Shown: piece by piece, positions 1 to 38,957 of the stretch | How positions within the stretch are numbered: position 1 is the first letter of the stretch | Layout: each line of letters begins with the position of its first letter | Program-made: the position numbers and the translations under genes | Notes under the pieces: model-generated | What the model saw: only the letters and a program-made list of their open reading frames with translations | The model's database searches: none | What the model was told of the DNA's origin: nothing | IMG/VR virus record: IMGVR_UViG_3300045988_085954 | Length of the DNA stretch: 38,957 nucleotides | Source of the DNA: a virus | Reading direction: 5' to 3' (one strand)

Positions 1-65
1 CTGTGACTAGCCCGGCTAGCCTCCCTTTGGTTACCTAAGGACGATGGCAACAACCAGACTTGCTA
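1..65. repeat. 65-bp exact direct terminal repeat (copy 1), identical to 38893-38957
   Basis: Positions 1-65 (ctgtgactagcccggctagcctccc...cttgcta) are repeated exactly at 38893-38957. The window ends inside the repeat, so it may be longer. This fits either a true direct terminal repeat of a T7-like phage or an assembly overlap of a complete genome. Confidence 0.8.
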
Positions 66-281
66 TACTAACAAGTAGTGTCAGTACTTTGTATAGCGTG
101 TCGTGCTCGTCCTCTTGCCTACCATTGATTACTATGATGTAGTAGTTAATGGTGGGCTTTTTACGTTTCATCGCCTCACATCTCTTATAATGTACTGCGC
201 AACTATACAGGCCTTTATTACCGGATTTGCGATTTTCATTTACCAGAATACGCAATAGAAGCTTTTAGCGAGTGCTAAATA

Positions 282-299
282 GTGCTTATTGGTGCTTAT
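282..299. repeat. 18-bp direct repeat gtgcttattggtgcttat (copy 1); copy 2 at 467-484
   Basis: An exact 18-mer, itself a tandem of gtgcttat, occurs twice about 185 bp apart. The two copies flank a GC-rich hairpin in a 225-bp non-coding stretch. Confidence 0.7.
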
Positions 300-319
300 C
301 CACGCAGATAATGAGCAAA

Positions 320-386
320 ACGAGGCAATAATGAAAAGGCCCCGAAAAGGCGGCAACGCTTGTCGTTGCTGACTTCCGGGGCCTTT
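320..386 (-). terminator. Candidate intrinsic terminator (GC-rich hairpin plus T-run) downstream of the right-end HTH gene
   Basis: A 10-bp stem aaaggccccg (335-344) pairs with cggggccttt (377-386) around a structured loop. On the minus strand it is followed by TTTTCATTATT. Confidence 0.45.
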
Positions 387-466
387 GAGTTCCTATGGTT
401 ATTCTTGAAAATACTGCATGGAAATATTTTTCATACCTCTATATATAAGGATTTATAAGCTGTTCG

Positions 467-484
467 GTGCTTATTGGTGCTTAT
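467..484. repeat. 18-bp direct repeat gtgcttattggtgcttat (copy 2)
   Basis: Exact copy of 282-299. Confidence 0.7.
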
Positions 485-735
485 ATTACACATACACACT
501 CGTGATTCTCGATGAATCTATACAGAGACAAACGAGTGACTCTGTAGTGTCTACCTACCTTGAAGGTCTTTAGTTTACCCTCTCTCATGTACCTTGTAAC
601 GGAGGACAGAGGTAGGTTTAGCATGATTGCTACATCTTTAGCACTAAAGGCTATTGCCTTATCCCATTGACCAGACTTACTACTATATAACTTGTTCATT
701 TCATCTTCTATCATTATATAATATACCTCATACAT
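481..735 (-). CDS. Small HTH DNA-binding protein (Xis/MerR-like HTH_17 type)
   Basis: The motif FSAKDVAIMLNLPLSSVTRYMREGKLKTFKVGRHYRVTRLSLYRFIE has the helix-turn-helix plus wing pattern of excisionase/MerR-family binders. It is the last gene after the large terminase (positional analogue of T7 gene 19.5). The true start may be an internal Met. Confidence 0.5.
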   Translation of the reverse strand: MYEVYYIMIEDEMNKLYSSKSGQWDKAIAFSAKDVAIMLNLPLSSVTRYMREGKLKTFKVGRHYRVTRLSLYRFIENHECVCVI

Positions 736-11820: not shown

Positions 11821-14139
11821 TCACGTTATCGCTCTCAAATTGATTGGGGAATCACTTTCTAATTCATAAGGTGATACATCACTAGCCGCAGAACGTGCTT
11901 CATTGATACTATCCATATCAGCATCATAGTTGCTGTCATCACTTCCACTATCAGAAGAAGCAGGGTGTTCTGCCAGATAATTCACAGCATCATCATAGTC
12001 CTGCTTCGCAATCTGCCTTGCCTCAGACAGAGACATCTCAGCATGACCTCCGTCATTGCTCCAATCCACAGCATAGAACATTTGCGTGTAACGATTGTAG
12101 CTGATATGTACGGAGTCTGCGGGGTTGTCATCACCTGCGGCACGATAGCAGAGTTGGTCGAGTGCGTGCGTGAAATATCCTTCATCATCTGGTGTTCCAA
12201 TGTTGCTATAGACAGCTTTCGGGAATGCTCCCCAATGATACGTTTGGAAGTTGTCAACGACATCAGCCCCTGCTTTGTTCACAGCATCTGAAGGTGTGTA
12301 GCCACATGTCGTATAGGCTGTGGCAAGGTCGATAATCTCATCCCTGAGGTCAGAGTTCATATTGCTGTCAAAGCGTACTGTATCGTAGGTGCCATCGCTA
12401 TAGACACTATCAAGGTGTCTCACGCCTTCTATGGTGTAGCCATTCATCTGTGCTTCTACCAATTCTTTATTCTCTGACACAACATCTGGGTCAGCATTAT
12501 TGTAATTGGCAAACATACGGAGGCCTGTATCGAAGTCACCTGAGACATCTATCAGAGACTTTAGGAAACGTGCTTGTTTCGCTACGTCTGCACCAAAACT
12601 GTGCTCTACATTGTTTGGGTTGGTCGTAATCATCTTTACAAGACCCATCATAGCTTCATCGCCACCAATATTGACACCACCATCATCGGATGGTTTGATA
12701 GATGCAAGTTTTGACGCAAGGTCAGCACCAAAGGAACCCTTGATGTCTGCAAGTTGCTTCATGTCCATCAAGCGGAAAAAGGCATCGGAATTTTCATTTT
12801 CTGCATAGTACATCAACTCATTCCACGCCACAGGGTACATGGCATCTTTATTGAGCGTGTAGGAATTGATAGCAACCCCATCATACACAGTGTTTCCAGA
12901 AGCCCATGCACCTATGATACCTTTGATTTTCTCAGCATCCTTCAGTCCACCATTACTACCACCTGTGGAAGAACCACCTCCACCACCTCTGCCCCCACGG
13001 AGACCTAACGCTTGACGCATTGCCATTTTCTTCTCCGCTGTGTCATGGTCAATCTTTGAACGCAGTTCAGGGAGAAGGGAATTATATTCTAAGGCCTTCT
13101 CTGGGTCTGTCGTGCGAAGATTTGTGACTTCAGCAATGGCTTTCTTGTAGCCAGACTCTCCCATCTTGCGGAACTTTTCGACCCAATCATATTTTTCTTG
13201 TGTGATGAACTGCCTATTGTACTGGGAGGCCATTGTCTTGACAGACTGCATGTCTAAGAGGTCAGAGGCTTTGATGGTCGAGCCATCCATGCTTGTCTGA
13301 ATCGTTACTCTATCGAGCATCTGAGAGAGCCTTTTAGCAGGAATATGCCCTGTCTTGATAATCTCCTGCGTGAAGTCTTCTAGGAGCTTCTGGCGATACT
13401 GAGGAGGAAGCCCCATCAATCGACCTTCATTGAAGATTGCCTGTACACGGTCTGTCATGGCTCCATTTGCCCGCAAGAGGTCTACTGAATTGTTGATGAC
13501 ATCACCAAGCTCACTCTGCATGTTTGCCATCGTGACAACAACATCTTCCTCATTCTTCTTCTTGTTCCATGCGGTTGCAAGGTTCCCCATGTTGACCATA
13601 GAGTTCTCATAGAACCCACGGTCAAAAGCAAGTTGATTCTGAGGAGCAGAGCTTTTGAGGTGTGCGTCACGCCATTCATTCATGAAGTTGGCATAACGCT
13701 TCATTTCCTCTTCGGCACTTTTCGCAGGTTCCATTGCGTACTTTGCATCATAGTCCTGCTTCATGCGTGCCCCGAGGAAGTTGCCTCTGAGCTTTTCGGC
13801 ATAGGCCGTGAAATAGGGGTTAGCGGCAGAGTCCGCATAACCTTCAAGCTGTGCCGCATCAATGGCATTCAGTTTCTCAATGGCACCTGCGGACATGCCG
13901 TTAATCATATCGGTTGCTTCAATCTCGCCTTTGGCATTCAGGTATTTCTCGTGGTTCACTGTGTAACCCTGAAGGGCATCACTGAGCTTTGCCAGGTTAT
14001 CAGCAACATCCACAACCTTAGGTTGCACGGAGGAACCCTGAGACACCCCAAGCCCCTGATAACGTCCCTGATAGACACCATCAGGCTGTGGGATAAACTG
14101 CCTTGCTGTTCCTATGGCATTTGATATTTCTGTTGGCAT
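11821..14139 (-). CDS. Internal virion protein gp15-like
   Basis: 772 aa between the gp14-like and gp16-like genes, with a Gly-rich linker GGRGGGGGSSTGGSNGG. An AAAGGAG site sits 5-6 nt upstream of the ATG. Confidence 0.65.
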   Translation of the reverse strand: MPTEISNAIGTARQFIPQPDGVYQGRYQGLGVSQGSSVQPKVVDVADNLAKLSDALQGYTVNHEKYLNAKGEIEATDMINGMSAGAIEKLNAIDAAQLEGYADSAANPYFTAYAEKLRGNFLGARMKQDYDAKYAMEPAKSAEEEMKRYANFMNEWRDAHLKSSAPQNQLAFDRGFYENSMVNMGNLATAWNKKKNEEDVVVTMANMQSELGDVINNSVDLLRANGAMTDRVQAIFNEGRLMGLPPQYRQKLLEDFTQEIIKTGHIPAKRLSQMLDRVTIQTSMDGSTIKASDLLDMQSVKTMASQYNRQFITQEKYDWVEKFRKMGESGYKKAIAEVTNLRTTDPEKALEYNSLLPELRSKIDHDTAEKKMAMRQALGLRGGRGGGGGSSTGGSNGGLKDAEKIKGIIGAWASGNTVYDGVAINSYTLNKDAMYPVAWNELMYYAENENSDAFFRLMDMKQLADIKGSFGADLASKLASIKPSDDGGVNIGGDEAMMGLVKMITTNPNNVEHSFGADVAKQARFLKSLIDVSGDFDTGLRMFANYNNADPDVVSENKELVEAQMNGYTIEGVRHLDSVYSDGTYDTVRFDSNMNSDLRDEIIDLATAYTTCGYTPSDAVNKAGADVVDNFQTYHWGAFPKAVYSNIGTPDDEGYFTHALDQLCYRAAGDDNPADSVHISYNRYTQMFYAVDWSNDGGHAEMSLSEARQIAKQDYDDAVNYLAEHPASSDSGSDDSNYDADMDSINEARSAASDVSPYELESDSPINLRAIT

Positions 14140-14150
14140 ACTGTCTCCTT

Positions 14151-14170
14151 TCTATCTTGTGTCTTGCTTA
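14151..14170 (-). promoter_or_regulatory. Variant phage-RNAP promoter upstream of the gp15-like gene
   Basis: Plus strand tctatcttgtgtcttgctta; sense strand TAAGCAAGACACAAGATAGA runs directly into the ribosome-binding site, as at the DNAP-module promoter. Confidence 0.45.
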
Positions 14171-14911
14171 GAAGAAGTTGATTGTCTGATTCTTTTCCGT
14201 ATATGGATTGATATACTCAAACTTAAAGGACGTATTCTTCCAATCAATATTGGTATGGAAGAGACTGCTGTAATCTGGAGCATCATCATATATGGTCTTG
14301 AATGATGAGGATGATGTATCCCAATAGAGCTTATTGGAAACTCCAGAGGAACTATGGGAACTGCCCGTGCTCATGGCGGAGTCCTTGACACCTCCCTGAG
14401 CACGGATACCCTGTATAGCATCTTCCGTCTGCTCTGCCCTATAGTATGCCGTGCCTAGCTTCAGCAGGGTAGACCACAATGAGGGTTTCTCTACTTGTGC
14501 TATGCTGTTGAGTCTCCCCTTTGCCTCCATCGCCTGTGACTCCTTATTGAGGTCAATCTCATTGGACTTGCGCCGATAGTTATCTCTGGTACTAGACAAG
14601 GCTCGATTGGTATCAGCCTGTGCGGAACGTTTCAGGAGGTTGGCTGTCCTCCCACCACCTGCAAGACCTTCGTTGACTGCCGCCCCCACCTGTGAGGTCA
14701 AACGGCCTCCCTGAAGACGAATCTTCTGGAGGTCAGCCACAGTTGCATCAAAGGCATCGGCGCGCTCCTGCTCTAGGTTCTGGAAACCATAGTTCATGGA
14801 GGTTATGATATTTTTTGCCGTCTGGACATTGGCTCTTGCCTGTGCCTCTAGCGACTTATTCTGTGCATAGACATCAACGAGAGCGGAGCCTACGGCAACC
14901 ACAGCACCCAT
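14168..14911 (-). CDS. Internal virion protein (gp14-like)
   Basis: 247 aa, Ala/Gln/Ser-rich, sitting between tail tubular B and gp15 as T7 gp14 does. Confidence 0.45.
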   Translation of the reverse strand: MGAVVAVGSALVDVYAQNKSLEAQARANVQTAKNIITSMNYGFQNLEQERADAFDATVADLQKIRLQGGRLTSQVGAAVNEGLAGGGRTANLLKRSAQADTNRALSSTRDNYRRKSNEIDLNKESQAMEAKGRLNSIAQVEKPSLWSTLLKLGTAYYRAEQTEDAIQGIRAQGGVKDSAMSTGSSHSSSGVSNKLYWDTSSSSFKTIYDDAPDYSSLFHTNIDWKNTSFKFEYINPYTEKNQTINFF

Positions 14912-27275: not shown

Positions 27276-27297
27276 TCCCTGTCTTGTGTCTCACTTA
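27276..27297 (-). promoter_or_regulatory. Phage-RNAP promoter upstream of the small coiled-coil gene and the DNAP gene
   Basis: Plus strand tccctgtcttgtgtctcacttaa; the sense strand runs directly into the GGAGG ribosome-binding site. Confidence 0.55.
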
Positions 27298-29105
27298 ATA
27301 TCCGGCTTTGCGTAGTAACGCTTTGCGGCCTCTTTCTGCCGAGCGTCTGAGAAGTTCGTGATACGCTTCAGATAGCCTATGACACGTGTGCCATAGTCTA
27401 CATTCTCGCTACCACATTTCTTGCATGCTTTGCGCGTCACGGGGTCAATCGTTCCACAATCATTGCAGATGGTACAAAGGACATTGGTTGTCCAGTACGG
27501 TACGCCATTCTTGCTACAGAGCTTGAAGAGCGTTTTTGCCTGTTCGTAGGACGGAAGCTGTTCAAGGTTCAGATGAAGTGCTGAACCACCGTCAAGGGAA
27601 TCCGTGACCTCATGTGCATACATCTCAATCTTGTCAAGAACGGAAAGGTTGGTGTCTTCTACCCGATAGAAGTAAGAGTTATAGCAATCACGCTTGACAC
27701 CTGAAAAGCCATCTTCCTTATCCCACTTCGCATTTTTGACACCGAGATTTTCAGCGGGTACAAGTTCCGTGTTGAAGCGACAACCATAACGCTGAAGAGC
27801 TTTCTTGTTCTCATCCTTGAAGATACCAAGGACATTAGACACCCATTTCTTGTAGGTGTCATTGTTACTAATCTCGTAGCCATATCTTTCAGCCGCCTCT
27901 ACGAGACCATTCACGCCAATGGTAAGGAACTGCTTGTCGATGTCCATGAACCCGGCAGTATAGGCAGGGAGAAGCCCTGCTTTGATGTATTCTTTATAGA
28001 CGGCTTTAGAAGCCATCAGGTATTTATGGACATCTTGAATCTGCTCACGGAGTGTGTTTTCAAAGTCATCATGTCCACTGATTGCGAGGCGTGCCAGACG
28101 GTTCATGTTGATGGTAATGACCTGCGCTGAACCTGTCACGACACCACCTGCCCCGAGGCTGTAGCTGAAGGTGTTGTCTGCAAGCTCGTTACGGAGGCGA
28201 CAACACGAAGCAAGGGAATCTACGGAATCCGACATGTAGACAAAGAAGCTGTGTCCTTTGCTCATCTGCTCTGCACAGAAGTCTACGAACTGTGGGTCGA
28301 TGAATCCACCTTTACCGTCCGTCAGGATACTTGCGGTAAGCACTGGATACGTCAACAGTTCTTTGTGTCGCTCCTTGCGGAACCACTCCATGAAGAACTT
28401 CTGGAGTTCCATAAGGCTATCCATGTCAGGCTGAGTACCATCTGGATAGTAGAAGTTGCCAAACATCTCCTGCATGTACGGGCGGTCGAAGACCGAGATG
28501 TTCCAGAAGACACTCTGGTCACCCCGAGCAGAAGCAGGCTGATTCAAGCCGTAGACAACACCCTGAAGTTCCTGCTTGATTTCCTTTGCGTTGGTCTTCA
28601 GGTAGTCTTTGCCATACTGCTTGCGTGCGAAGTAGTCGAAGTAGTGAAGGAATTCCACGGTTGCTACTGCACCTGCGAAGTTGGAGGCCACCTGATAAAC
28701 AAGGTTGACAAAGGAACCACAGAAGGACTGAAGGTTCGTCGGGGCTTTCGAGACACCTCCCATGCATTTTGTACCTTCGAGCAGAAAGGGGTATAGCGTG
28801 ATAGAAGCACAGTACGGCTTCAGGGATGTCTCATCATGCACGTAAATAAAGTGTTCAGCGAGGTCGAGGAGGTAGTTGTTCCCTACCTCCCACCCGAACA
28901 TTTCTCGCACCTTATCCCGCACCATCGCCCGATTGAGTGTGATGGTATACGGTTTGTACATCTCTGCTTCCAGAGTTGCCAATGTCTTGCGCGTGACATT
29001 GGCATTGGCATCCACTTCGGAACCACTGGAAGCATTACTTGCCTCTGTATAAGAGCGGATGAAGTCGAGGCGGTCATTCATCTGACTAGTTGATAATGCT
29101 TTCAT
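27291..29105 (-). CDS. nrdD: Anaerobic ribonucleoside-triphosphate reductase NrdD (class III RNR)
   Basis: C-terminal Zn-ribbon CxxC...CxxC followed by the glycyl-radical motif RVIGYL. The ATG start at 29105 overlaps the nrdG stop as ATGA. Confidence 0.9.
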   Translation of the reverse strand: MKALSTSQMNDRLDFIRSYTEASNASSGSEVDANANVTRKTLATLEAEMYKPYTITLNRAMVRDKVREMFGWEVGNNYLLDLAEHFIYVHDETSLKPYCASITLYPFLLEGTKCMGGVSKAPTNLQSFCGSFVNLVYQVASNFAGAVATVEFLHYFDYFARKQYGKDYLKTNAKEIKQELQGVVYGLNQPASARGDQSVFWNISVFDRPYMQEMFGNFYYPDGTQPDMDSLMELQKFFMEWFRKERHKELLTYPVLTASILTDGKGGFIDPQFVDFCAEQMSKGHSFFVYMSDSVDSLASCCRLRNELADNTFSYSLGAGGVVTGSAQVITINMNRLARLAISGHDDFENTLREQIQDVHKYLMASKAVYKEYIKAGLLPAYTAGFMDIDKQFLTIGVNGLVEAAERYGYEISNNDTYKKWVSNVLGIFKDENKKALQRYGCRFNTELVPAENLGVKNAKWDKEDGFSGVKRDCYNSYFYRVEDTNLSVLDKIEMYAHEVTDSLDGGSALHLNLEQLPSYEQAKTLFKLCSKNGVPYWTTNVLCTICNDCGTIDPVTRKACKKCGSENVDYGTRVIGYLKRITNFSDARQKEAAKRYYAKPDIK

Positions 29106-29623
29106 GTTTGAAACAAATGCGTGCAATCTACGAAACGATTTTTCATCCTAACCAATTGGTATTTGTCGTAGATTACATCTGTCTCCTTCCTGTAAAATCT
29201 TTGGTTTGTTGTCGGGGAGGAAAGACCCCCAAGCTCTGCTTTGTAGCTCCCTGTCTTCAGCCATGTGATACCAGAGTGTTCTGCTATGTATGTGTTTGTC
29301 TCTTCATCATCAAGGCCACTATAGAGACACGTCGGGGCAATCTCTGAGAGATCGTCGAGTAATTTCAGCAAGTCTGGTGTGCTCATCTTGTTGCATGTGC
29401 CTCCCATCAGGACGATAGCATTCGCCCCGGACTCTATGGCATTCTCTGCCCCTCTCAAGACATCCTCAAGACTCGTAGGAGATTCCACTTCTTCCCATAG
29501 CTCTTTGCTGTGACAGCCTTTGCACCTCTGGGTACATGAGCCAAGCTCGATGAAATAAGCAATCTTGTCTGGTACCTCATTCAAGGTAATACCTGTGGAA
29601 ACAACAGGAACTAGAACTGACAA
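29102..29623 (-). CDS. nrdG: Anaerobic RNR activating protein NrdG (radical SAM); TTG start
   Basis: Radical-SAM motif CTQRCKGC. A GGAGG site sits 7 nt upstream of the TTG at 29623, inside the primase-helicase 3' end. The ATG-extended ORF to 29737 would overlap the primase gene by 127 nt, and 173 aa is the typical NrdG size. Confidence 0.8.
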   Translation of the reverse strand: MSVLVPVVSTGITLNEVPDKIAYFIELGSCTQRCKGCHSKELWEEVESPTSLEDVLRGAENAIESGANAIVLMGGTCNKMSTPDLLKLLDDLSEIAPTCLYSGLDDEETNTYIAEHSGITWLKTGSYKAELGGLSSPTTNQRFYRKETDVIYDKYQLVRMKNRFVDCTHLFQT

Positions 29624-33722: not shown

Positions 33723-33897
33723 TTAGCTAACTAAAGGATTTTGTAGTATCCTTTAGTTAATTAAAGCAACTTATAGTTTACCTTTAGGTTATTTACCTTA
33801 TGGTTATTATTTATAAAGCAATAGAGGTAGTGACCTAAGGATAAACCTATTGGTAGAAGAGGTTCCTTTTGTTACCTTATGGTATCTATTACTCTCC
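33723..33897. other. AT-rich non-coding region with iteron-like repeats between two tandem phage promoters (candidate primary replication origin)
   Basis: There is no ATG on the sense strand. Sense-strand repeats are CCATAAGGTAA (x2), CCTAAAGGTAA, CCTTAGGTCA and ACTAAAGGATA, together with the small palindromes ctttagctaactaaag and ctttagttaattaaag. The layout RNAP gene - promoter - AT-rich - promoter mirrors the T7 primary origin. Confidence 0.5.
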
Positions 33898-33922
33898 TCC
33901 TGTCTTGTGTCTCACCTACATC
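33893..33922 (-). promoter_or_regulatory. Phage-RNAP promoter (origin-proximal A)
   Basis: Plus strand ctcctcctgtcttgtgtctcacctacatc, immediately after the RNAP-gene terminator. Confidence 0.55.
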
Positions 33923-33944
33923 TTGTGGTTATTTTTATAGCAAG

Positions 33945-33985
33945 ACACAAGAAAAGAGGCTGTACATGACAACCTCTTTTTCTAA
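33945..33985 (-). terminator. Intrinsic terminator directly after the RNAP gene (early-transcript terminator), potentially bidirectional
   Basis: Stem aaagagg (33953-33959) pairs with cctcttt (33973-33979) around a 13-nt loop. On the minus strand it is followed by TTTTCTTGTG, and on the plus strand by TTTTTCT. Confidence 0.5.
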
Positions 33986-36634: not shown

Positions 36635-36654
36635 ATACTTGTGCCTCCATCTGG

Positions 36655-36687
36655 TTTTTCTCTATCTTGTGTCTCACCTAAATTTGT
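36655..36687 (-). promoter_or_regulatory. Phage-RNAP promoter immediately upstream of the RNAP gene (autoregulatory), with an inverted core copy facing the plus-strand gene
   Basis: Plus strand ttttctctatcttgtgtctcacctaaatttg. Its inverted copy gtagacacaagg lies at 36695-36706, so cttgtgtct and agacacaag form a 9-bp inverted repeat with a 22-nt spacer. Confidence 0.55.
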
Positions 36688-36751
36688 ATTACATGTAGAC
36701 ACAAGGCTAACTATACAATTTGTAAAACATGTGGTAGCATGTTATAGGGTG

Positions 36752-37372
36752 ATGAAAATGGATTTTGATGAAAAAGATGAAGCTATCCGCTTTCGCCTTT
36801 CAACTAGCATGAAGAGGAAACTTCAACTCATTGCAATGCGTCGCGGTCTCAATATGTCCCAATTCATCCGCAATTACATTGAGACAATCATTAATGAGGA
36901 TGAGAATCAAGACATGCTTGCCGCGCGTGATGCTAGGTATCTAGTGAATCCAAAAGATGAGGATGAAAATCCTTATGGTTCTATTGTTTCCACGAGGGTG
37001 CCAACAGAATTGAAAACCTTGTATAATGCCTGCTGTTCCTCTAATAGCTTGAAAGCTAGCGAGCTTATACGGAACTTCATGCGCGACTATACGGAATTTA
37101 GATTGCAGATGTACCCCGGTCACCTAAGGTCTCTATCAGGGTATCTAAGCTATTTCCTGCTGTTCCTAAGGATGGCAGAGTACCACAAAGGGAAGGCTTT
37201 CAAGTCTTGCCGTATGGTACACGCAAAGAACAAGATCATACCAGATACACCTATCATAGAAAAAGTTACTGCCTGTACTTATCGCGTAAATGACATATTA
37301 GCGGACTGCTATTACATCATTGAATTTGAAGATATAACTAATGTGAATGTCTCTTTTTCTCCCTTTGACTGA
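36752..37372 (+). CDS. Tandem ribbon-helix-helix (RHH) DNA-binding protein, the only plus-strand gene
   Basis: Two RHH units: IRFRLSTSMKRKLQLIAMRRGLNMSQFIRNYIETII and IVSTRVPTELKTLYNACCSSNSLKASELIRNFMRDY, each with a beta-strand with alternating polar residues followed by two helices, then a C-terminal domain of about 90 aa. The start is ATG 36752 or 36758, after an AGGGTGA site. The gene is convergent with the early genes. Confidence 0.6.
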   Translation: MKMDFDEKDEAIRFRLSTSMKRKLQLIAMRRGLNMSQFIRNYIETIINEDENQDMLAARDARYLVNPKDEDENPYGSIVSTRVPTELKTLYNACCSSNSLKASELIRNFMRDYTEFRLQMYPGHLRSLSGYLSYFLLFLRMAEYHKGKAFKSCRMVHAKNKIIPDTPIIEKVTACTYRVNDILADCYYIIEFEDITNVNVSFSPFD

Positions 37373-37382
37373 TACCTACACA

Positions 37383-37415
37383 CGAGACACAAGCAACTTT
37401 TTACCTTGTGTCTCG
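37383..37415. other. Perfect 11-bp-stem hairpin between convergent genes, built from the phage-promoter core
   Basis: cgagacacaag (37383-37393), loop caactttttac, cttgtgtctcg (37405-37415). It sits between the RHH-gene stop (37372) and the SprT-like gene stop (37432). Confidence 0.6.
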
Positions 37416-37431
37416 CCTTGCAGGAGCTGTT

Positions 37432-37959
37432 TTATTCACCTTTCATCAATGAAAAGTGCTGATGACCACATTTACATTTCCAGTTAGTTGCATGATGGTC
37501 AGCTACGGCCTTGATAAACTTTGTCCGGCGCATGAATCGCCATGTAGCCCCACAATTATCACACTTGACCACATACCTATAGGCGATTTCATAAGCCTTA
37601 ATTGAGTGCGGAGATTTATATGTGATTTTAATGCCATAGATACTTCCGACCTTCTTTGCAAGTCCCTGCCATTCCTCATCATGCCCGGAGTCATAGGAGG
37701 CCATTGCATGGCACAGCTCGTGCAGAATAGTTTCCTTGACGGCCTCCCATCCATCTACTACACGATATGCAGAGATCCCGAGGATAAACGTAGGAGAATC
37801 ACGATATAATCTGCAATAACCATGATGATTAAAACGAGCGTTGAAGTCGATTTTCTCTAACTTCCTGATGGAAAACCCCTGCTCTTTTAGCTCCTTGATA
37901 TACTGCATGGTCATCGCCTGCACGCGCTTTTTAGCCTCCGGCGTCCATTTTGCTTTCAT
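37432..37959 (-). CDS. SprT-like Zn metalloprotease with C-terminal Zn-ribbon
   Basis: HExxH motif ILHELCHAMASYD in a SprT-like context, plus C-terminal CDNCG...CKCGH. Confidence 0.65.
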   Translation of the reverse strand: MKAKWTPEAKKRVQAMTMQYIKELKEQGFSIRKLEKIDFNARFNHHGYCRLYRDSPTFILGISAYRVVDGWEAVKETILHELCHAMASYDSGHDEEWQGLAKKVGSIYGIKITYKSPHSIKAYEIAYRYVVKCDNCGATWRFMRRTKFIKAVADHHATNWKCKCGHQHFSLMKGE

Positions 37960-38069: not shown

Positions 38070-38429
38070 TTATTCTTCCTCCTTCGCCAACTTCAGCACG
38101 ATACGGCTTGCCTGATACAAAGCGCGTGCCTGCACCTTCAGCCATGATTCCCGGCTGTTCGGTGGGAGGATTCCACCTTTTGTGCGCCGGATCTCCCATG
38201 GTGCGCTGAGGCGCTTGCAAATCTCCTCGTCTGTGATGAGGGAACAGCTGCCCTCGCTGTATTCTTTCCAATCCCTTGCGCCGTTCAGCAGGCGCGACTC
38301 CGTTACTTTCCCGTCATCCTTGATATTGTCTAGGAGCTCATCGGCGTACAGGAGCACTCCGCGGCTCCATGCAGAGCGCGCCTTGCGATACCGGGCCTCT
38401 AACTCAATGCTGATACTTTTTGCGTTCAT
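38070..38429 (-). CDS. Early hypothetical protein on a GC-rich segment
   Basis: 119-aa ORF. Local GC is about 55-57% against about 44% for the genome. No recognisable motif. Confidence 0.4.
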   Translation of the reverse strand: MNAKSISIELEARYRKARSAWSRGVLLYADELLDNIKDDGKVTESRLLNGARDWKEYSEGSCSLITDEEICKRLSAPWEIRRTKGGILPPNSRESWLKVQARALYQASRIVLKLAKEEE

Positions 38430-38522
38430 GATATTTCCTCCTTTTGTGTGACATGTGGTAATTTAGGAGTCCTATAGCCTCCGTGGGATGTCCCAGAGAT
38501 TACCCTGAGACATCCTCGCAAA

Positions 38523-38741: not shown

Positions 38742-38892
38742 CTTTATGTCTCCCTTCTATTACCAGACATGCATTAGCGGCTCACCAATACAACCAGGAT
38801 TAAAAATTGAATAATCAGCAGAATGAAGTTATACATTTCTTCCCTCTTTTCTCATCTTGTGATATAATTTAGGTAATCGGGAGGTTGCCTGC

Positions 38893-38957
38893 CTGTGACT
38901 AGCCCGGCTAGCCTCCCTTTGGTTACCTAAGGACGATGGCAACAACCAGACTTGCTA
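38893..38957. repeat. 65-bp exact direct terminal repeat (copy 2)
   Basis: Identical to 1-65. Confidence 0.8.

Follow-up and report, generated by a model that had tools for sequence, protein, structure and literature searches.

A putative lysogeny repressor with two fused ribbon-helix-helix units, encoded against the lytic genes of a T7-like phage

Introduction

T7-like phages serve as the textbook example of a strictly lytic life and are favored for therapy and for orthogonal expression parts. Among ribbon-helix-helix (RHH) proteins, Arc and Mnt are lysogeny-related repressors of phage P22. Evidence for temperate T7-like lineages is recent, and the mechanism that silences them is so far a proposal: the LUZ100 paper (PMC10134795, citing Boeckman et al. 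2022, Virology 568:86) proposes that a MarR-like repressor, co-transcribed with the integrase, gates the phage promoter of the RNA polymerase (RNAP) gene. In SSV1, F55 maintains lysogeny via tandem repeats at early promoters (PMC5569661). Single-chain tandem RHH proteins have been described from the F plasmid (TraY, a relaxosome accessory factor; PMC12117103) and from an archaeal virus (AvtR, which is autoregulating; PMC5569661). Here, we analyze a viral DNA stretch of 38,957 nucleotides (IMG/VR record IMGVR_UViG_3300045988_085954; hereafter, the window), a T7-like genome that is read from the minus strand, and its only plus-strand gene. The product of this gene, RHH-CTD, has two fused RHH units followed by a C-terminal domain (CTD).

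We found that RHH-CTD is probably a lysogeny/immunity repressor of a temperate T7-like phage lineage, one that would keep the RNAP gene silent. A repressor gating the RNAP gene in temperate T7-like phages is a known concept; the architecture and family of the repressor, its placement, and the host clade are new. An earlier note, made from the letters of this DNA, had described such control as not seen in characterized T7-like phages. That claim has to be narrowed to the type of repressor, since an RNAP-gating repressor of the MarR-like type had already been proposed (PMC10134795).

The Gene and Its Protein

Minus-strand open reading frames (ORFs) occupy 93% of the window, and the sole gene-sized gap (36635-37431) holds the plus-strand gene (Table 1). 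Ratios of nonsynonymous to synonymous substitution rates (dN/dS) were 0.09-0.26 in pairwise comparisons with four homologues, and full-length homologues were detected down to 21% identity. The ORF is thus a real gene under purifying selection, and the lone opposite-strand gene of the earlier note was confirmed. Its start was not: the note had read 206 aa from position 36752, but an extra A in the related loci L009 and L011 puts the ATG at 36752 out of frame, and the conserved start is therefore the ATG at 36758, giving 204 aa.

Residues ~1-50 and ~72-118 each matched RHH families only. In Pfam, unit 1 matched RHH_1, CopG_antitoxin, NikA-like, and RelB, and unit 2 matched DUF6290 and RHH_9, all below gathering scores. 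The best profile match was PHROG 876, "transcriptional repressor" (E 1.9e-9), which covers both units (aa 3-113); PHROG RHH repressor families matched at E 2e-9 to 2e-7. A PDB profile search returned RHH proteins only (NikA, SvtR, Mnt, MazE7, and DinJ), and Foldseek against the BFVD viral models returned small RHH proteins (probability 0.96-1.0; template modeling score 0.7-0.87 on the target). Alignment of the unit 1 and unit 2 profiles with hhalign (probability 95.5%, E 1.6e-8, 39 columns) indicated that the units, separated by a linker of ~22-25 aa, are homologous. By sequence profile, the protein thus falls in the RHH (Arc/MetJ/CopG) superfamily, with its ~45-aa beta-alpha-alpha unit, and by architecture it is a single-chain tandem RHH protein, with two homologous units and a linker in one polypeptide. 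The two consecutive RHH units that the earlier note had seen are therefore well founded. Its view that a covalent pseudo-dimer is unusual has to be dropped, tandem RHH chains being already known in TraY (PMC12117103) and AvtR (PMC5569661).

AlphaFold (AF2) with 5 sequences gave an unusable model (predicted local distance difference test, pLDDT, 45); with 17 sequences, the model was moderate (mean pLDDT 62.7), and the four RHH helices were modeled. The CTD (aa ~119-204, ~85 aa) was modeled as one helix and four strands with pLDDT 72-83. This domain is real and conserved, as the earlier note had proposed. Of the check suggested there by profile or structure prediction, the RHH part succeeded by profile and the identification of the CTD did not: its profile matched nothing in Pfam or in PDB sequences, and a fold search gave no credible match. 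For the whole protein, no curated family or defense model in Pfam, NCBIfam, or PADLOC scored above threshold.

The family is rare, with 30 representatives at E < 1e-3 from 1.84 billion searched. Full-length members have 175-219 aa, and proteins of two RHH units only have 108-109 aa (P0010, P0025, and P0030). One distant member, P0027 (239 aa), has four RHH units in one chain, that is, two pseudo-dimers, and its length equals that of the 239-position PHROG 876 profile. A profile search of genome contigs with the RHH alignment gave no match; the IMG/VR scans with RHH alignments returned 3 contigs only.

Temperate Relatives and Their Hosts

The closest relatives, L009, L010, and L011, are colinear with the window, encode an RHH protein 96-100% identical to that of the window, and have a tyrosine integrase. 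The integrase belongs to an extra ~3.2-kb module, absent from the window between ~186 and ~284, that also contains a host-type early promoter, a small 51-54-aa RHH gene, and a gene for a 91-aa membrane protein. The early promoter of this module (GGTGTTGACA-N17-TAATAT) is missing from the window by comparison with L010 12325-14626. In L001 and L002 (RHH protein 61% identical), the RNAP/RHH/SprT order is the same, and the integrase is followed by bacterial AsnC-type, EngB, and Lon genes, the Lon being 78-81% identical to Mitsuokella Lon. The same order recurs in L015 (24% identical), which is embedded in a 629-kb Acidaminococcus intestini contig; EF-P, YceG, and RuvX come after it. L012 and L013, whose RHH protein is 22% identical to that of the window, are 99.93% identical to each other over 12.9 kb and split ~140 nt after the integrase gene, one continuing into terminase (circular phage) and the other into type I-C cas genes (integrated). 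This phage occurs both free and integrated.

With integrases and integrated copies with host flanks in these relatives, the lineage is temperate, which makes a lysogeny/immunity repressor the best reading of the gene, rather than a lytic timing device. The hosts are best placed among the Negativicutes (Selenomonadaceae/Acidaminococcaceae), anaerobic gut and rumen bacteria. An anaerobic ribonucleotide reductase NrdD in the window, at 27291-29126(-), and a radical S-adenosylmethionine activase-like gene in L015, near 2323-2817, fit with strictly anaerobic hosts of this clade. In the literature that we searched, no paper combined T7-like phages with Negativicutes or described T7-like prophages in this diderm Firmicutes clade.

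The geometry described in the earlier note, convergent with the SprT/early genes and divergent from the RNAP gene, was confirmed. SprT synteny is kept in L001, L008, L009, and L012, and the RHH gene is divergent from the RNAP gene even in relatives at 21-25% protein identity. In the relatives, minus-strand early genes separate it from the integrase, at a distance of 2.6-4 kb. In L016, a non-T7 prophage, the homologue is divergent from a lytic-type operon of small and sigma-like genes, the classical CI position. The RHH-RNAP spacer of L015 is 65 bp long and has a strong TTGACG-18-TAAAAT promoter for the RHH gene and no phage promoter, so RNAP expression there must come from antisense transcription through the repressor gene.

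Candidate Operators

An extended box, TTGnnnAAC(A/T)TGT(A/G)GnCACA, readable as ~10-bp direct repeats, recurs at the control regions of two relatives. In L001, AC[AT]TGT[AG]G occurs in 8 copies against 2.4 expected, every one of them between genes (p = 9e-8). The RNAP-RHH spacer holds three, a further two directly precede the ribosome-binding sites (RBSs) of early genes, and the last three fall exactly inside 17-18-nt spacers that belong to three canonical early promoters (TTGACA...TATACT/TAGAAT). The same distribution pattern is seen in L008, with 7 boxes against 1.15 expected. In both genomes, boxes lie in the spacers of all early host promoters and over the -10 element of the RHH gene; the predicted operators thus overlap the early lytic promoters as well as the promoter of the repressor gene itself.

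We trained a box matrix on L001 and L008 only and scanned the window with it; the best score in 100 shuffles was 19.7 bits. The three highest-ranking sites are given in Table 1. O1 adjoins the upstream edge of the RNAP promoter. O2/O3, which in L009 is an exact CATGTGGTAG CATGTGGTAG repeat, overlaps the likely RHH promoter (extended -10 TGgTAGCAT at 36732-36740; RBS AGGGTGA at 36746-36752). A TGnTAnCAT element lies at a constant distance from the start codon in the window, L001, L008, L012, L015, and L016. With its own extended -10-like element and a downstream hairpin/terminator, the RHH gene appears to be transcribed apart from and opposite to the lytic genes.

The third site, at 38442-38463, is a candidate roadblock site and has counterparts in the early spacers of L001 (12412 and 13187) and L008 (4647 and 5597). 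The early spacers (window 38430-38522; L001 12390-12487 and 13165-13274; L008 4628-4722) share a layout of GC-rich hairpin, plus-oriented box, and RBS and could be processing sites plus roadblocks. L001 has three tandem host-type early promoters at 13880-14190(-), an arrangement that recalls T7 A1-A3; a near-consensus phage promoter (TTGACAACTTGTAGGCACACAAGGTAGAAT) with the same orientation overlaps the middle one, which may be a dual host/phage promoter.

As a control, relatives without the RHH-CTD gene, or with a small RHH or helix-turn-helix (HTH) gene beside the early promoter, have other, lineage-specific spacer boxes: TGAGAACA in L104, L009, and L011; TTATCCCATG in L010; and TGTTGTGA in L109. 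In the distant L012 and L015 lineages, shared k-mers gave no clear operator.

The Phage Promoter and the Inverted Repeats

The phage promoter consensus is TAGGTGAGACACAAGAyAGAGA, with 8 strong minus-strand copies in the window. The promoter before the RNAP gene has a predicted +1 near 36663, placed by T7 numbering, and would feed back positively on RNAP synthesis. The earlier note had the 5' region of the RHH gene overlap this promoter. That is correct for the upstream regulatory region; the coding sequence itself (36758-37372) is clear of it, and only an artificial GTG-extended ORF would reach it.

Inverted copies of the promoter core were also part of the earlier note. All three inverted repeats exist and fold better than shuffles (z -3.7 to -5.4), but the copies are only partial: the promoter matrix scan of the window gave no plus-strand site above 12 bits, and we rejected the inverted cores as plus-strand phage promoters. 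A weak minus-strand site at 37393-37424 (Table 1) would, if active, read antisense across the RHH gene toward the RNAP gene.

The hairpin at 37383-37415 has a folding energy of -19.1 kcal/mol on the plus strand and -28.1 kcal/mol on the minus strand. Its L001 counterpart is larger (-34.9 kcal/mol) and is followed by UUUU; with a T-run after it on the plus strand in L001 and L008, the hairpin can terminate the RHH transcript, and in the window it is likely the terminator of that transcript. L103, whose RNAP is 86% identical to that of the window and which has no RHH gene, keeps this hairpin. The hairpin is therefore ancestral and predates the RHH gene, and we rejected it as a part of the RHH cassette. 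In T7, the RNase III sites R1 and R1.1 flank gene 1. The promoter-core stems in the hairpins flanking the RNAP gene could be RNase III-type processing sites as one possibility.

Table 1. Coordinates of the features discussed in the window
Feature	Position	Strand	Evidence or remark
RHH-RHH-CTD gene, 204 aa	36758-37372	+	stop codon 37370-37372
RHH unit 1	~36758-36907	+	
Linker	36908-36970	+	
RHH unit 2	~36971-37111	+	
C-terminal alpha/beta domain	37112-37369	+	
Predicted operator O1, ATTTGTATTACATGTAGACACA	36682-36703	+	matrix rank 1 in window, 23.3 bits; block conserved in alignment A4
Predicted operators O2/O3, 10-bp direct repeats CATGTGGTAG / CATGTTATAG	36718-36747	+	matrix rank 2, 20.3 bits
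Third box, TTTTGTGTGACATGTGGTAATT, in early intergenic spacer, directly upstream of the RBS of early gene 38070-38429(-)	38442-38463	+	matrix rank 3, 14.4 bits; repeat D16
Phage-RNAP promoter just upstream of RNAP gene	36654-36685	-	39.8 of maximum 43 bits
Weak phage-promoter-like site, GGCGAGACACAAGG	37393-37424	-	12.9 bits, promoter matrix scan
Perfect 11-bp inverted repeat, CGAGACACAAG-N11-CTTGTGTCTCG, between RHH stop and SprT stop	37383-37415		folding
Terminator-like hairpin downstream of RNAP gene	33952-33980	-	
Inverted partial promoter core downstream of RNAP gene	33940-33951		
Next phage promoter downstream of RNAP gene	33892-33923	-	
CTTGTGG box	33921-33927		
T7-type single-subunit RNAP gene, 880 aa	33992-36634	-	PF00940 E 2e-98, PF14700
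SprT-like metalloprotease gene, last early gene; transcription converges on RHH gene	37432-37959	-	PF10263 E 5e-9
Recombination-module remnant	284-735	-	homology to L001
Other T7-type genes: terminase, Gp10A capsid protein, portal, DNA polymerase A, primase-helicase, endonuclease I		-	

Distribution of the Cassette

We compared 12 IMG/VR loci with a related RNAP (58-98% identity). The RHH-CTD gene was present only in the window lineage (L101 and L102) and in L110 (the L012 phage); L111 could be scored neither way, as its contig starts within the RNAP gene. Of the 12 flanks, 8 have an integrase, which makes the clade broadly temperate. A small 50-59-aa RHH gene was also found in 8 of the 12, a count that misses the small RHH of L102 only through the ORF length used.

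RHH-CTD appears to be one of two interchangeable or stackable regulators of this clade. It stands alone in L001, L008, and L012, with the small RHH in L009-L011, and with an HTH_3 protein in L015; in L001, no further regulator gene adjoins the integrase. In L009 (12064-12430), L010 (12310-12660), and L104 (3900-4400), the small RHH gene (51-59 aa) and the conserved early promoter are divergently oriented. This gene and the lineage-specific boxes in and near the spacer probably make up a repressor/operator pair of their own, which would be the common regulator of lysogeny in the clade.

At the "empty site" of L103 (6870-6990), the SprT stop is followed by a compound hairpin with promoter-core stems, 10 nt, a phage promoter, and the RNAP gene, with neither an RHH gene nor O1. 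The RHH cassette (O1 to stop, ~36686-37382) therefore sits between a pre-existing hairpin and the promoter, and the empty site is useful for dating its gain or loss. In L004 (9940-10700; also in L005-L007), an RHH-CTD gene 62% identical lies in a non-T7 element near MuF_C, McrBC, IS200/605 TnpA, and TnpB. The hairpin repeat CCCCGCATGCGCGGGGATGAT is on both sides of it and a phage-promoter-like GCGAGACACAAGATAGAAAG downstream, which suggests that the cassette was transferred from a T7-like phage.

Genome Setting and the Loss of the Integrase

The RNAP of the window is 36-40% identical to known phage RNAPs and <41% to that of any phage among 50,697 GenBank phage records; blastn and tblastn of the region and of the RHH protein against these records gave no match. 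Positions 1-65 repeat 38893-38957, so the window is a circular assembly with 38,892 unique bases, and the circular junction is backed by the independent contig L010. An Rfam search of the window gave no match. Two tiny hydrophobic ORFs open the early region: a 20-aa peptide, MYNFILLIIQFLILVVLVSR, at 38778-38840(-) and a 47-aa membrane protein at 31-171(-) that is conserved in L010. A plus-strand extended -10, TGTGATATAAT, at 38858-38868 is directed away from them.

Of the ~3.2-kb integrase module, the window retains the flanks alone. Window positions 284-432 are homologous to the sequence just past the L001 integrase (terminator/att region). Direct GTGCTTA repeats at 264-300 and 466-485 flank a strong bidirectional hairpin, an HTH_17 Xis/AlpA-like ORF lies beside this repeat region at 481-735(-), and GTGCTTA-like repeats also follow the integrase in L012. 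This region looks like an attP with arm-type sites plus an excisionase, retained despite the loss of the integrase. A tRNA search of the window and of L001, L002, L004, and L009 found none, so no tRNA att site is evident. The window genome may be a deletion/defective variant or an assembly variant, and it illustrates that a temperate phage can give rise, by deletion, to a "lytic-looking" T7-like contig without an integrase.

Proposed Mechanism

In the mechanism that we propose, the two fused RHH units would together form, within one chain, a pseudo-dimeric head that reads DNA, with the C-terminal alpha/beta domain serving oligomerization and/or signal sensing. The protein would bind the predicted ~10-bp-periodic boxes. 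At O2/O3, it would occupy its own promoter, resulting in autoregulation; at O1, it would sit at the upstream edge of the phage promoter and hinder RNAP self-amplification; and in the early region, it would bind the boxes and either keep host RNA polymerase out or impede its passage, in L001-type genomes stopping host-polymerase initiation at the early promoters. Because the RHH gene separates the early operon from the RNAP gene and is antisense to both, transcription from the early side must cross it head-on before reaching RNAP, and repressor-side and lytic-side transcription would antagonize each other by transcriptional interference. Without phage RNAP, the middle and late program would be off in the lysogen, and an incoming related genome would be silenced likewise, giving immunity. 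In the window itself, RHH-CTD could at most act as an immunity or RNAP-gating factor of a deletion variant.

The dedicated RNAP switch of the earlier note keeps its core in this mechanism, as a DNA-binding regulator placed to gate RNAP, and the options of a carrier state or superinfection control that it had named pointed in the right direction; its delayed-early control, a lytic timing device, is the less probable reading in a temperate lineage. It is conceivable, if unlikely, that the cassette is a compact bistable switch in the full sense, with asymmetric, orientation-specific boxes as promoter-spacer operators and as intragenic stoperator-like roadblocks, head-on interference, a self-amplifying RNAP loop held OFF, and the CTD as a RecA/LexA-independent induction sensor.

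Several observations weigh against a lysogeny repressor. The window has no integrase, no small RHH gene, and no conserved early promoter, and a search of it for a sigma-70-like minus-strand early host promoter found neither a recognizable one nor a replacement. No RHH-CTD copy lies next to the RNAP gene in L103-L109 and L112; with most RNAP relatives lacking the gene, RHH-CTD is dispensable for the temperate lifestyle of the clade. In L009-L011, the window's own lineage, the early-promoter spacer has other boxes, apparently for the small RHH, so RHH-CTD is not the sole and perhaps not the master regulator there, and for the window itself only O1, O2/O3, and the 38442 box apply. Roughly one turn of the helix (~10 bp) separates O1 from the -17 edge of the promoter downstream of it, and direct occlusion of phage RNAP is thus not evident. 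Since the box contains a -35-like TTGnnA, it may recur partly through descent from promoters and not because a repressor binds it. A search for an induction route found no S24 peptidase domain, LexA-type box, or antirepressor, the one occurrence of the LexA-type GAAC-N4-GTTC being in a coding region. Finally, in the 17-sequence AF2 model, residues 1-10 and 48-82 have pLDDT <50, and DSSP called no ribbon.

Alternative Explanations

P22 Arc and Mnt tune ant. RHH-CTD could also be a regulator of lytic-cycle timing with no role in lysogeny, made early by host polymerase and transiently damping the RNAP feedback promoter or shutting the early promoters. An intact gene in a window without an integrase, the position of O1 at the RNAP promoter, and the many temperate relatives that manage without the gene would all be accounted for. 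We nevertheless consider this improbable: the gene runs counter to every lytic transcript, between a promoter and a terminator of its own, its boxes occupy the early host promoter spacers of L001 and L008, where RHH-CTD is the sole regulator beside the integrase, and a homologue takes a CI-like position in a non-T7 prophage. A similarly low probability goes to an accessory hetero-immunity or superinfection-exclusion cassette (moron), a mobile repressor module that would silence box-bearing competitors while the resident phage is under the small RHH. O1 and O2/O3 are inside the resident phage's own RNAP control region, and L001, L008, and L012 lack any other regulator beside the integrase. A moron would suit the patchy distribution, the empty site in L103, the L004 transfer with its piece of phage promoter, and the fact that the early promoter of L009-L011 has other boxes and L001/L008-type phages carry the RHH-CTD boxes; it overlaps the lysogeny/immunity repressor and does not exclude it.

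The earlier note had taken the promoter-core inverted repeats as such (36666/36696, 33904/33940, and 37383/37405; core GAGACACAAG) as the binding sites, in which case the protein would cap phage promoters directly. This has a slim chance of being right. Three plus-strand AGACACAAG copies each lie within 50 nt of a minus-strand promoter core, and the end of the operator consensus (...TGTAGnCACA) resembles the promoter core. However, L008 has lost the inverted core before the RNAP gene and L001 has only a degraded copy, although the TAC(A/T)TGTAG block is retained. Moreover, the other five strong phage promoters are without a partner, the 37383-37415 hairpin is present in L103, which has no RHH gene, and RNA processing or terminator hairpins on either side of gene 1 would explain the repeats equally well. 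The inverted-core partner at 36696-36707 (GTAGACACAAGG) is the right-hand part of O1, and its sequence type also fills the L001 early-promoter spacers (ACTTGTAGACACAAATGG); in L008, this stretch has diverged, with the TACATGTAG block preserved. The likely operator is the extended box. Very unlikely is an orphan type II antitoxin or an antitoxin-like autoregulator of a phage toxin-antitoxin module. The antitoxin matches reflect the shared RHH fold only, all Pfam and NCBIfam scores are below the curated cut-offs, and the gene is monocistronic between promoter and hairpin, with no co-transcribed toxin or neighboring plus-strand ORF. With PADLOC giving no match either, we rejected both the toxin-antitoxin and the defense-system readings.

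If RHH-CTD is the lysogeny/immunity repressor, the locus adds a second, unrelated repressor solution for temperate T7-like phages, with a candidate operator set and a host range not described before (gut/rumen Negativicutes). It is a testable system for holding a self-amplifying single-subunit RNAP circuit off, and it offers a new RNAP/promoter pair and a cognate repressor/operator pair for synthetic circuits.

Comparison with Known Systems

By sequence, RHH-CTD does not belong to the MarR type (no winged helix and no co-transcription with the integrase) or to the type II antitoxins, and it lacks specific homology to TraY or AvtR. With TraY and AvtR, it shares two RHH units per chain and, as expected from this, a monomeric pseudo-dimer that would read asymmetric sites and polymerize along DNA. 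In contrast to RHH-CTD, neither has a C-terminal alpha/beta domain, and TraY is not a prophage repressor; the TraY family and AvtR (4hv0) were absent from the Pfam/PDB sequence matches of the window protein. PHROG 876 covers both RHH units, but the match stops at the end of unit 2 and leaves the CTD uncovered. Tandem-RHH phage repressors are thus already an annotated protein family, the annotation being by inference, not experiment.

P22 Arc and Mnt and SSV1 F55 share with RHH-CTD the RHH fold, which reads DNA with a beta-ribbon, and they have what is predicted for RHH-CTD: short operator repeats about one helical turn apart over promoters, and autoregulation. However, they are non-covalent dimers or tetramers of ~50-80 aa rather than two fused units plus an ~85-aa domain, and their similarity to the window protein is at the fold level only (E 0.03-0.1). 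The coliphage 186/P2 switches likewise set the repressor gene against the lytic transcript, with interference built in, and as at the stoperators of cluster A mycobacteriophages (PMC9283540), asymmetric sites in the short lytic-operon spacers could act as roadblocks with a monomeric repressor. The 186/P2 repressors and L5 gp71 are HTH proteins, and this likeness is an architectural analogy only.

In the MarR model of temperate T7-like phages, as here, there is an integrase, a phage promoter before the RNAP gene with positive feedback, and a proposed phage repressor. In contrast to that model, the repressor here combines two RHH units with a novel CTD and has no MarR or winged-HTH match. Its gene stands apart from the integrase transcript, as a reverse-strand unit of its own with the early genes on one side and the RNAP gene on the other, and Negativicutes take the place of Proteobacteria as hosts.

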